Source of the DNA: Candidatus Latescibacterota bacterium
GTDB taxonomy: Bacteria > Latescibacterota > UBA2968
Reading direction: 5' to 3'
Assembly: GCA_965207885.1 (NCBI GenBank)
Contig: OZ242311.1
Span: forward strand, 3,968,001-4,032,000
Length of the DNA stretch: 64,000 nucleotides
The notes under the pieces: generated by a model
Seen by the model: only the letters and a program-made list of their open reading frames with translations
What the model was told of the DNA's origin: nothing
The model's database searches: none
Made by a program: the position numbers and the translations under genes
Part shown: in pieces, positions 1 through 1,973 of the stretch
Position numbering within the stretch: the first letter of the stretch is position 1
How the letters are laid out: each line of letters opens with the position of its first letter

Positions 1-1973
1 CACGCCATTTCTTCGGGCACACCGACCTGATCGTATCGCAATTCCGGAGCAGGCACAGCCACCGAACGCCCGCTGAACAACGCGCGCGCCTGAAATTGCA
101 AACGCGACAACTCGCAAAATGCGCGAACCCGCTCAGACAGCGTCTCAACCGCGCGATCCACCAATATATCTGGCGCGCCATTGGCAATCATCTCCTCCAA
201 GCGGTCATTAGCCTCTCGCAATTCTCGGGGCACATCTCTCCCACTCACATGAGTCAACGAATGCCCCGGTAGCCACGGATGCGGAATCGAACGCGCAAGC
301 GCGACATCCCCATCGCGTTTCAACGAAAACTCGGTGCCGCGTTCATCCAGTTCAACAGCCACCCCACCCTTCGACAAATGCCCAATTAGCTCATCAAACT
401 GAGGGGACGGTGCATTAGGAGTAACAGGTCCCGCAACGACGCGGTCAACCAGAGTATCGGCATCATCTCGATCCACTGCGCACGTATTGAATAAATCGTC
501 AATCACCCCAAAAGCACCTGCTTCTCGCAACGCCAAAAACTCTGTCTCACCCAACCCTTGATCGCGTTGACCCGGCTTTACACCCATGTGAATTTTATCT
601 GCTGCCAGATGCAACGTGCGCCCCCAATATACCCACCCTACAGTGGTGCGGCGCGGCAGCGTCTCCCCATTCACCGTCAGCGTCTCCATACCATCTTCAG
701 CCAGCCCATTAGCTCTCAAACGAGCGCGTATCTCATCGTCCTTTGGCGCATTGAGCGCGGGAATAATAACCGGCTCTCCCTCGACCTTTGCAATGCGCCC
801 GGCCACAGATTCGCGCAACTGTCCAATATTCAACCGCGACGGCAAACCACACACACTCACAATAAGCTCCACAGGCGTGCCATCCGACAGTTTGGGCATC
901 TGTTCATCTCGCACAATGCGCGACACCACCCCCTTAAAACCGTGTCGATTGCTCAGTTTATCGCCCGGCGCAACGCGATTGGGCAGCATCATTCGGTTCG
1001 CAGCCGATTCGCTGATCACAACTGCATCTTCGTGTGTATCACCATTCCACGCCATAAAGGCGGTCAGCAAATTGTACCCCGTCCAAAAATGCGGATCGCT
1101 CGGTTCACACCCCGTTTGCACCAGCGCGGGTTCCAACTCCAGTATTTTGCCGTCATATTGCGCGTGATACGCGTGCCACACACCCTGCTCATCGCGCTGC
1201 ATATCGGGGCTTGGCGCACCAATCCACTGCCGCATCATATTCACACCCATCAAAACGCGATTGGTGTCATTGTGTTCCAAAAACGGAACCACCGAAGCAC
1301 CTATGCCCAGCCGTTTTTCAGGCGCATCGTCTTCAATAACCAGCTTGCCATCGCGAATAGTCGCTCCCTGAGCCACCTCTAAAATCCGCGCGAGATTCGG
1401 TCCCTCGGGCGTACAATAAGGACACACGCGCCCATCGTGCGACGGATGATAGCAATTTTCTACCCCCTCATCAGCCTCACCGATAATTGGGATCAACGTC
1501 ACCCGCCGCAAATGAACGTACATATCCTGCAAATTGGTCGCCTGCAAATACTGCGATGTCGGTTCCTCCGTAAAAAATGCGTGAATCCAATCTCCCAACG
1601 GCATCCAGGTTTCAACGGCATCTCCCAGCATCTCTGGCATATTTTCCAACCGCTCGGCAATATAATCGCGCAATTGCTCTCCCACACACCGAATCTCAGC
1701 GCGCGCCAAATCCACATCAGTCGGCGCGGGAACCACCGTTCGAAAAAAGCCATCTACCTTAAACCGCCCCCAATCATCGGGCTGAGGAATATTGTTGTAC
1801 ACAATCTCTTGCCCCCCCTGAATCGCGAGATGCAATTCACAGGTGTATTCACCCTTCGACACCACCCGATATCCCGCCAGCGACACCCGATCTGACAATA
1901 ATTCGGGCAATCCCTTTTGCACAAACATATCCCACGAAATTTTATGCCACGGTGCCTTTACTGAAAGACTCAT
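1..1973 (-). CDS. Miniaturised RpoB-RpoC fusion, two-barrel RNA polymerase-like protein (partial; 3' end beyond the left edge)
   Basis: Hand translation from ATG at 1973 (AGGAGG RBS 6 nt upstream) is stop-free to the edge. Colinear beta motifs: [180 protein letters not shown]. Then beta' motifs: [51 protein letters not shown]. Confidence 0.93.

Follow-up and report, generated by a model that had tools for sequence, protein, structure and literature searches.

A predicted compact single-chain RNA polymerase encoded with an ECF-type sigma factor in a Candidatus Latescibacterota genome

Cellular transcription is thought to need a five-subunit RNA polymerase (RNAP) core of ~400 kDa. The canonical core comprises beta (1,342 amino acids, aa), beta' (1,407 aa), two alpha subunits and omega. 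In Helicobacter and Wolbachia, beta is joined N-terminally to beta' in one chain (PRK09603 and PRK14844, respectively); these fusions measure ~2,800–2,900 aa, constitute the cell's only RNAP and lie in the rpoBC locus. To our knowledge, the known single-chain relatives are either very diverged phage enzymes (YonO) or eukaryotic plasmid enzymes, none of which is known to use a sigma factor. This study concerns a 64,000-nucleotide (nt) stretch of a Candidatus Latescibacterota bacterium (contig OZ242311.1, here C1), hereafter the window, which covers positions 3968001–4032000 of a single-contig 6.23-Mb genome. Its left edge carries most of a gene for a predicted 1,028-aa polymerase that resembles the Helicobacter and Wolbachia fusions in the order of its parts. 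A first-pass annotation, made from the letters of the window, had recognized this fused gene; the main new finding beyond it is that the gene has a partner, which codes for a sigma factor of the extracytoplasmic function (ECF) type.

Compact fusions are not unprecedented, since Orf6 of the yeast cytoplasmic plasmid pGKL2 is described as a 982-aa Rpb2::Rpb1 fusion (PMC2919709). According to the available portions of two reports (PMC2919709, PMC6211774), this protein (K2ORF6p) likewise consists of one chain, with a compacted Rpb2/beta followed by part of Rpb1/beta', and likewise retains both barrels and the bridge helix, with the trigger region, lid and rudder absent. The available text of Sykora et al. 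(PMC6211774) further describes K2ORF6p as lacking most of the clamp and needing a small second subunit, K2ORF7p, which carries C-terminal beta' regions; the system is eukaryotic, plasmid-borne and groups near poxvirus RNAPs. The family studied here, in contrast, is bacterial and chromosomal, is seen by bacterial rpoB/rpoC profiles, keeps the clamp helices, is paired with a sigma factor and has no conserved third gene of at least 70 aa. The likeness is architectural only, and the two systems are set apart by description.

YonO of SPbeta offers a second comparison, being reported as a single-chain two-barrel RNAP of ~100 kDa that exists beside the host enzyme (PMC5467207, PMC2919709). The available portions of the literature present YonO-like proteins as phage-linked, with only very distant homology to multisubunit RNAPs, and report no sigma partner for YonO (PMC2919709, PMC5467207, PMC3417536). 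The compact family differs in both profile scores and context: RNAP models of Pfam and NCBIfam pick it up with ease, it is chromosomal and syntenic, and it has a sigma partner. When 50,697 phage records were searched by tblastn with the compact polymerase, nothing from Bacillus/SPbeta came up at E ≤ 1e-5. Multisubunit RNAPs of jumbo phages and other viruses are also diverged beta/beta' homologs, some of them fused, but they are only 21–28% identical to the compact family, larger or split, and viral.

The compact family has its catalytic motifs, its clamp helices and its bridge helix in common with canonical RNAP acting with an ECF sigma factor, and likewise has an ECF sigma and an ECF-like promoter, whereas it is predicted to lack the flap, the trigger loop, the beta' N-terminal zinc region and the rudder. 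Against PRK09603 and PRK14844, the window polymerase scored 110–121 bits, with cut-offs of 4,632–5,372. Neither a compact beta-beta' fusion from bacteria nor an ECF group linked to RNAP turned up as already described in full-text literature searches, and the available main text of an ECF reclassification paper contains none of the terms rpoB, rpoC, Rpb or 'beta subunit' (PMC7826278). The novelty suggested by the first-pass annotation thus stands as far as these searches go, and is narrowed by the precedent of pGKL2 Orf6 for compact fusions in general (PMC2919709). The two-gene sigma–polymerase module appears to be undescribed, and the family would represent a conserved chromosomal enzyme carved from bacterial beta and beta', at half their combined size.

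The compact polymerase gene and its predicted anatomy

An ATG at window position 1973 opens a minus-strand frame that continues for 657 codons without a stop up to the left edge, preceded by an AGGAGG sequence 7 nt 5' of the start codon, just as the first-pass annotation had read it. Beyond the edge, the frame runs for a further 371 codons (1,114 nt) to C1:3966887 and then meets a stop, so that the whole gene (L003 8887–11973, minus strand) is intact and encodes 1,028 aa, corresponding to an estimated mass of ~115 kDa based on its length. There is no early stop, and the aspartate motif is kept: the annotation had expected NADFDGD within 100 codons past the edge, and the motif is found as NMDFDGD at residues 731–737 (L003 9763–9783), 74–80 codons beyond it. 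A contig from a DNA sequencing run is identical to window 1–1740 (0 differences). The open reading frame (ORF) in the window is the 5' part of a real, complete gene. Canonical rpoB (1,823 bits; open frame of 1,269 aa) and rpoC (open frame of 1,368 aa) are located ~284 kb away at C1:3679960–3687735. Because full-size rpoB and rpoC are present elsewhere in the same genome, the compact gene is an extra copy, which agrees with its initial interpretation as an accessory enzyme. The spacer between the polymerase gene and the upstream ABC exporter gene, with its AGGAGG site, suggests an operon arrangement of the two.

A family profile was constructed from 30 diverse members and aligned to Escherichia coli RpoB and RpoC. 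On the beta side, the colinear blocks correspond to residues 496–579 (the fork/Rif-region segment), 649–707, 790–821 (holding E813/D814), 1054–1148 (holding GDK...RHGNKG and PSRMNIGQ, with K1065/K1073 and R1106) and 1177–1342 (holding H1237 and reaching the last residue). On the beta' side, they correspond to residues 76–130 (weak), 268–516 and 575–792. The second of these includes the clamp helices (268–309) with an Arg equivalent to R275, the double-psi beta-barrel (DPBB, 330–516) and NADFDGD, and the third includes the funnel and bridge helix with FREGL...GARKGLA. In the profile alignment, no counterpart was found for most of beta 150–495, the beta flap (~830–1053), beta' 1–75 and 131–267, the rudder insert or anything after the bridge helix. 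In Rif cluster I (window 1500–1570, minus strand; residues ~135–160), we take a Gln to stand at the D516 equivalent and a Thr at the S531 equivalent, as read from the alignment.

Most of the anatomy proposed by the first-pass annotation is borne out by these alignments. The beta blocks follow one another in order with the active-center residues kept (beta 790–821, 1054–1148 and 1177–1342), beta' blocks continue in the same frame, and the motifs it quoted lie where it had placed them (Table 1). Its ~14-aa linker has to be given up, as the beta part aligns to residue 1342 and the beta' part resumes at ~76–100, leaving no free linker. Among the elements it expected past the edge, the DxDxD motif and a bridge-helix-like segment (residues 941–962) are present, while the trigger loop is absent. 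The C-terminus of the protein lies ~50 residues past a long predicted helix (948–979). A conserved C-terminal sequence (PGVVFARAAxxGExDPL...SRLFVGL) was considered as the first trigger helix and dropped, since its best match, to beta' ~1331–1347, was not significant either by Smith–Waterman alignment (34 vs 31 ± 4.7 for shuffles) or by hhalign (E = 0.23).

The AlphaFold2 (AF2) model of the polymerase, computed with the family alignment as input, was of high confidence (pLDDT 92.1, pTM 0.90, no segment below 50), and a helical hairpin formed by residues 583–619 is modeled at the clamp-helix position. In a Foldseek search against the PDB, bacterial and plastid RNAP beta chains ranked first, with E values down to 4e-25, and the best 49 matches listed were RNAP chains; the structural check proposed at the outset therefore favors the same assignment. 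Among Pfam models, the window part matched Rpb2_6 (E = 1e-40), Rpb2_3 (8e-5) and, at the edge, the first 28 residues of Rpb1_2, and the full protein matched Rpb2_6 (3.7e-40) and Rpb1_2 (2.2e-15), so that both the Rpb2 and the Rpb1 profile groups are represented, as had been anticipated. NCBIfam has no model for the compact family, and all matches fall far under their cut-offs. With 172 bits for TIGR02013 (rpoB; cut-off 801) and 17 bits for TIGR02386 (rpoC; cut-off 963), the window part is neither an RpoB nor an RpoC equivalog; in the whole-genome equivalog search, pieces of the compact gene scored 96.7 and 84.6 bits, below the cut-offs, whereas the true rpoB and rpoC passed.

Apart from the trigger loop, the elements of a two-barrel core that were tested were detected: a beta-side barrel with GDKxxxRHGxKG and the ED pair, a beta'-side barrel with the Mg-binding loop, the bridge helix and the overall fold. 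Judged by sequence and model, the protein is a single-chain two-barrel RNAP in which a shrunken beta is joined end to end to a shrunken beta'. The predicted enzyme keeps both DPBBs, the Mg-binding DxDxD loop, the beta-side Lys/Arg motifs and the fork/Rif segment, along with clamp helices, funnel and bridge helix. Its beta part would be without lobes and flap, and its beta' part without the N-terminus, the rudder and everything from the trigger loop onward. The term 'bacterial-type' is used here on the basis of the profile scores and the sigma partner.

The polymerase family and its ECF sigma partner

The most telling feature of the locus is the sigma gene, which lies two genes upstream of the polymerase in the window, on the same strand, and matches sigma regions 2 and 4. 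Of 21 diverse loci, 20 have a homolog of this gene on the polymerase strand and directly upstream of the polymerase, while the remaining one begins inside the polymerase gene. The same arrangement was found in all 18 loci of the genus and near kin and in 10 of 10 loci of another set, four of which come from genomes not counted before. In total, sigma is upstream in 43 of 43 testable loci, the window's own included, and these loci take in records titled Poribacteria, Latescibacterota, Caldilineaceae and Spirochaetales. In eight loci the two genes overlap at stop and start, the sigma frame ending 1–4 nt inside the polymerase start. Homologs score 122.6 (L137), 112.2 (L012) and 90.5 bits (L017) against TIGR02937 (cut-off 42.9), and the window's sigma scores 88.6 bits over profile positions 48–164 only. 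By these scores, the partner gene encodes a bona fide ECF sigma. The linker between sigma2 and sigma4 is unusually conserved, with P112 invariant and W114 and D124 conserved in at least 90%.

Co-occurrence of the two genes was surveyed across 168 genomes of the window's phylum. The sigma subfamily is present in 63 of them at E ≤ 1e-30; 62 genomes contain both genes, three the polymerase only, one sigma only, and 102 neither. Every sigma match in this survey adjoins a polymerase gene, and in the sigma-only genome (G156) the gene is situated at a contig edge. The polymerase-only genomes at this threshold are G143, G146 and G149; in G143, a one-contig genome, sigma may be truly lost or may have diverged. 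When ORFs of at least 70 aa from 22 loci were clustered, only the polymerase and sigma were shared, with no third conserved gene and no conserved anti-sigma gene beside sigma. A cluster of GFO/IDH/MocA oxidoreductases seen in five loci was rejected as a linked gene, this being a common family. Sigma and polymerase are genetically locked as a two-gene module.

The polymerase family itself is large and conserved. With 8,000 candidates scored, a word-indexed search identified 584 proteins at E ≤ 1e-3; among the matches listed, family proteins were mostly 1,000–1,070 aa long, carried the same Pfam pair and were all unnamed or 'hypothetical'. An exhaustive search of 50%-identity representatives yielded 361 clusters at E ≤ 1e-30. 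The ESM Atlas contains two clusters (73 and 135 members) that agree with the family in protein size and domain composition and bear automatic names only, and it also holds clusters of fused forms of 1,221–1,787 aa. Among 180 full-length members, the Asp triad is complete in 175, GDKxSNRHGxKG is near-invariant, and the beta-side catalytic motifs are kept over 35–95% identity. Five full-length members (P0134, P0055, P0093, P0125 and P0193) lack at least one catalytic Asp (e.g., GSQ or GGL for DDD) and may be inactivated or repurposed copies. The ratio of nonsynonymous to synonymous substitution rates (dN/dS) was 0.118–0.173 in all 12 orthologue pairs formed with the window gene, the beta and beta' halves being alike. 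The family is under purifying selection, and the intact homologs in other genomes for which the first-pass annotation had called number in the hundreds.

At E ≤ 1e-60, the compact polymerase occurs in 65 of the 168 genomes of the phylum (19 of 52 high-quality genomes) and in 20 of 20 genomes of the genus, where synteny is conserved. Beyond this phylum, at least three of the 301 genomes sampled from that of G169 (whose record bears the title Caldilineaceae) carry the gene, a lower bound given that two candidates were scored per genome, and two records titled Spirochaetales carry members with 29% identity. Record titles of the relatives differ on phylum, naming Gemmatimonadota, Poribacteria or Latescibacterota. 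A scan of genome contigs returned mostly canonical rpoBC loci, with family members only at L012–L017. The polymerase of two relatives (G064 and G071) contains one in-frame stop each. G071 (8.4 Mb, same family) has two sigma–polymerase modules (L125 and L126), whose polymerases are 49% and 40% identical to that of the window, each with its own sigma.

Searches of mobile-element collections support the earlier remark that the gene has no visible phage context. At a coverage of at least 80%, the compact polymerase has no counterpart in the 50,697 phage or the 72,556 plasmid records. PADLOC gave no match for it, its PHROG matches were to generic beta/beta' families only, and the neighbors scanned included neither an integrase gene nor phage genes. 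The best 80 IMG/VR matches were 21–28% identical, and the two inspected were a 2,062-aa fusion and a split pair. The fusion is a single ORF (L156 5673–11861, plus strand) on a 69-kb viral contig, with both beta and beta' parts matched at 27% identity, and is predicted to be a viral fusion of intermediate size.

A bipartite motif, TGAAC[CT]-N13-15-GG[TCA]GTC, precedes the sigma gene in 17 of 20 upstream regions, with a 14-nt spacer in 16 regions and a distance of 43–50 nt to the start codon in 16; reversed sequences and 200 shuffles contained none. The motif was derived from these same 20 regions, and a fairer test is therefore provided by four new loci outside the derivation set, three of which carry it. 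With its GAAC (-35-like) and GTC (-10-like) elements at ECF-like spacing, the motif resembles ECF promoters, which points to autoregulation. Two extra motif sites in the window's own genome are not in clear promoter positions. In another genome (G041), an identical 25-nt string, TGAACCGGAACCGGCTTTCGGTGTC, matches the promoter pattern six times (e.g., C1:2131082–2131106 of that genome); the string probably belongs to a repeated element whose fit to the pattern is due to chance or capture. Directly upstream of the promoter-like motif, a GC-rich hairpin followed by a T-run, which the consensus scan did not list because of one stem mismatch, probably terminates the gene upstream of sigma, which would make the sigma operon a separate unit.

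In the window's sigma gene, 147 bp flanked by two CAAG microrepeats are deleted in frame (the junction lies near 4268), which takes out 49 residues of region 2 (profile positions 1–47 of 165). Sigma is undeleted in all 18 close relatives, where it is ~197 aa long, and in all other loci. Contigs of the DNA run, which contains this stretch in full, bridge the junction (a 56-nt record, 4239–4294, depth 70), a result that tests the assembler rather than biology, as the run may be the source sample. The contig graph of the likely source sample breaks exactly at the deletion junction, which suggests that a strain with an undeleted allele co-exists in it. The ABC gene inserted between sigma and polymerase in the window is matched at the same site by a 91–98% identical copy in six of the 18 relatives and by a different ABC gene in one; sigma and polymerase are directly adjacent in eight, and three have a gap of 0.6–1.3 kb. 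The exporter copy is absent from the other loci and is a variable insert. Contigs that two studies' metatranscriptome libraries yielded (the labels read sponge and coral metagenomes), 90–99% alike, cover the polymerase, ABC and sigma genes with sigma in its undeleted form, including one of 2,421 nt over window 631–3051 and one of 3,694 nt over 1–1654 and past the edge; DNA carry-over is possible in such libraries, and the contigs cannot show transcription, strand or ends.

Possible modes of action of the module

Clamp helices are the docking site of sigma region 2 in canonical RNAP. In the mechanism proposed here, region 2 of the partner sigma would dock on the retained clamp helices of the compact polymerase and direct it to TGAACC-N14-GGTGTC promoters, above all its own. 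The result would be a small self-reinforcing transcription unit for which alpha and omega are not needed. We infer from sequence the catalysis, the sigma binding, the polymerase that reads the promoter and the physiological output of the module. Whether the accessory mini-polymerase and its dedicated ECF sigma work as a private sigma-directed transcription unit is, in our judgment, evenly poised. The stronger version, in which the two proteins form a complete orthogonal machine that initiates at its own ECF-type promoters, with positive feedback independent of the host core, is possible and slightly less probable. If active, the enzyme would show that the flap, trigger loop, rudder, alpha and omega are dispensable for promoter-specific initiation, and bacterial regulation would gain a second, private channel of transcription. 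If also orthogonal, it would be the smallest sigma-dependent RNA polymerase known and would define the minimal RNAP elements for sigma-directed initiation. Its small size suits structural work and a compact orthogonal expression module.

Physical contact between the partners was addressed by complex prediction for the cognate pair of a close relative (L137), using polymerase residues 230–1027 and the 197-aa sigma, each with its own alignment. The score was 0.48 (runs of 0.48, 0.48 and 0.46) and the best of three controls scored 0.00, a result graded as weak support; contact agreement was at least 26% and partner pLDDT at least 65, and no interface was reported for this prediction. Of 80 solved complexes, 58 reached the mark, as did two of 110 mismatched pairs, while scores of 0.60 or less that reached it came from only seven of the 80 solved complexes and from both passing mismatches. 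The pass may be explained by likeness to solved structures of sigma on the clamp helices, a textbook pair.

Several observations weigh against a private transcription unit. The profile alignment to E. coli RpoC ends at beta' 792, and with ~50 residues past the bridge helix the trigger loop is absent. The beta flap, the tip of which docks sigma region 4 in canonical holoenzymes, is deleted as far as the alignment indicates. Five of the 180 members are without a full Asp triad. The strict motif (TGAACY-N13-15-GGTGTC) occurs at chance level elsewhere in the window's own genome, with three sites against four control sites, and near chance in four of five other genomes, so that no regulon is visible beyond the operon itself. 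The deletion in sigma region 2 may leave the module silent or misregulated in this genome. In addition, the complex prediction supports sigma binding only weakly, and the ordinary ECF promoter geometry would also fit a sigma that acts with the host core.

This last possibility leads to the main competing explanation, in which sigma is an ordinary ECF factor for the host core only and turns on the operon upon some signal, with the mini-polymerase as a sigma-independent effector. It could serve as a polymerase held in reserve or insensitive to inhibitors, make RNA in a primase-like or RNA-templated manner, or produce a specific small RNA. Canonical promoter spacing, the missing region-4-docking flap and the weak complex prediction are all consistent with it, as are cargo genes such as the ABC exporter in the operon, which recall stress regulons, and single-chain relatives such as YonO are reported to act without sigma in the available text of PMC5467207. 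It accounts less readily for a locus in which the polymerase alone is conserved beside sigma and no anti-sigma gene is conserved, for the stop/start overlap in eight loci, which implies translational coupling, and for a sigma subfamily that is essentially never found without the polymerase. The unusual conservation of the sigma2–sigma4 linker and the retention of the clamp-helix hairpin, although most of the clamp is gone, point the same way, and we regard a host-core-only sigma as rather unlikely. The polymerase might instead be a non-polymerizing mimic of the core that binds and holds the ECF sigma in place of an anti-sigma factor, or a scaffold. Anti-sigma genes usually sit directly downstream of an ECF sigma gene, which is where the polymerase gene lies, co-translated with sigma; the retained sigma-docking clamp helices and the loss of the triad in five of 180 members also suit this proposal. 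Such a role is nonetheless quite improbable given that 175 of 180 members keep all three Asp, that the beta-side motifs are near-invariant over 35–95% identity, that purifying selection is equal in both halves, and that a 1,028-aa two-barrel fold far exceeds what a sigma trap needs. Were it correct, it would be a new kind of anti-sigma mechanism.

A mobile-element origin, with the gene left behind or carried by a phage, a plasmid or the like, comparable to YonO or the jumbo-phage polymerases, would fit the patchy spread (65 of 168 genomes in its own phylum against three of 301 in that of G169), the two copies in G071 and a restriction–modification pair 8 kb away. The conserved synteny in 20 of 20 genus genomes, the lack of any copy covering at least 80% of the protein among the phage and plasmid records searched, IMG/VR matches that are at most 28% identical and consist of large or separate subunits, the empty PADLOC result and neighbors free of integrase and phage genes in the regions scanned make it very improbable. 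A decaying pseudogene or an assembly artefact could be invoked for the deleted sigma next door and for the single in-frame stops in G064 and G071, yet the polymerase has an intact 1,028-aa frame, hundreds of full-length homologs, a dN/dS of ~0.15 and an exact match in the DNA-run contig over window 1–1740. For the polymerase gene, this explanation is already refuted, and its overall likelihood is negligible. A direct partnership of sigma and mini-polymerase is favored by the stop/start overlap, the lack of any conserved anti-sigma gene, the retained clamp helices and the exclusive co-occurrence of the two genes.

Feature coordinates and neighboring genes

Table 1 Features of the sigma–polymerase module in window coordinates
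Feature	Position	Strand	Basis
Compact beta::beta' RNA polymerase gene, 5' two thirds (codons 1–657), predicted	1..1973	-	ORF, alignment and AF2 model
Beta-like module, residues 1 to ~545	339..1973	-	Profile alignment to E. coli beta
Beta-side active-site Lys/Arg motif (E. coli beta 1064–1075)	930..965	-	Profile alignment, conservation
HEDA motif	1023..1034	-	Sequence read
PSRLNIGQ motif	819..842	-	Sequence read
FSGRSV motif	60..77	-	Sequence read
Helical hairpin, residues 583–619, aligned to beta' clamp helices (E. coli beta' 268–309)	117..227	-	Alignment and AF2 model
12-nt spacer and AGGAGG ribosome-binding site, between ABC stop codon and polymerase ATG	1974..1988	-	Sequence read
Gene for a 620-aa ABC exporter with membrane and ATPase domains fused	1989..3851	-	Domain matches, relatives
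ECF-type sigma-70 family gene, TTG start at 4316 with AGGAGG site, 148 aa	3870..4316	-	Domain matches, relatives
ECF-type promoter-like motif TGAACC-N14-GGTGTC, 48 nt upstream of sigma start	4339..4364	-	Motif comparison
GC-rich hairpin and T-run, GCGCAGTCC-TGAA-GGGCTGCGC-TTTTTTTT	4365..4393	-	Sequence read

Upstream of sigma, two further minus-strand genes encode a 315-aa protein without a Pfam family (4421–5368) and a 345-aa protein with an N-terminal DksA/TraR-type C4 zinc finger (5358–6395). DksA-type fingers bind the RNAP secondary channel. Both proteins are soluble, with no hydrophobic segment, and synteny of their genes with the sigma–polymerase pair is limited to the genus and one family-level relative. 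Because the TTG start listed at 6395 is overlapped by a sigma-70-like promoter (TTGACA-17-TACATT), the true start of the 345-aa gene is probably further in.

On the other side of the module, directly downstream of the polymerase, lies a gene pair (L003 6257–8661, minus strand; window -3743 to -1339) for a BlaI repressor and for an M56 peptidase of BlaR1-like type to which three TonB_C domains are fused. In relatives, the BlaI/BlaR1-like pair occurs in tandem duplicates with a variable number of TonB_C repeats. Farther into the window, a plus-strand gene (6629–8884) encodes a protein of 751 aa in which a dockerin/EF-hand-like calcium-binding motif at the N-terminus is the only part recognized. 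The restriction–modification pair consists of genes for an MjaI-type restriction endonuclease and an N6/N4 DNA methylase (9865–11614, minus strand), forming a type II system, and is followed by uvrB at 11607–13643.

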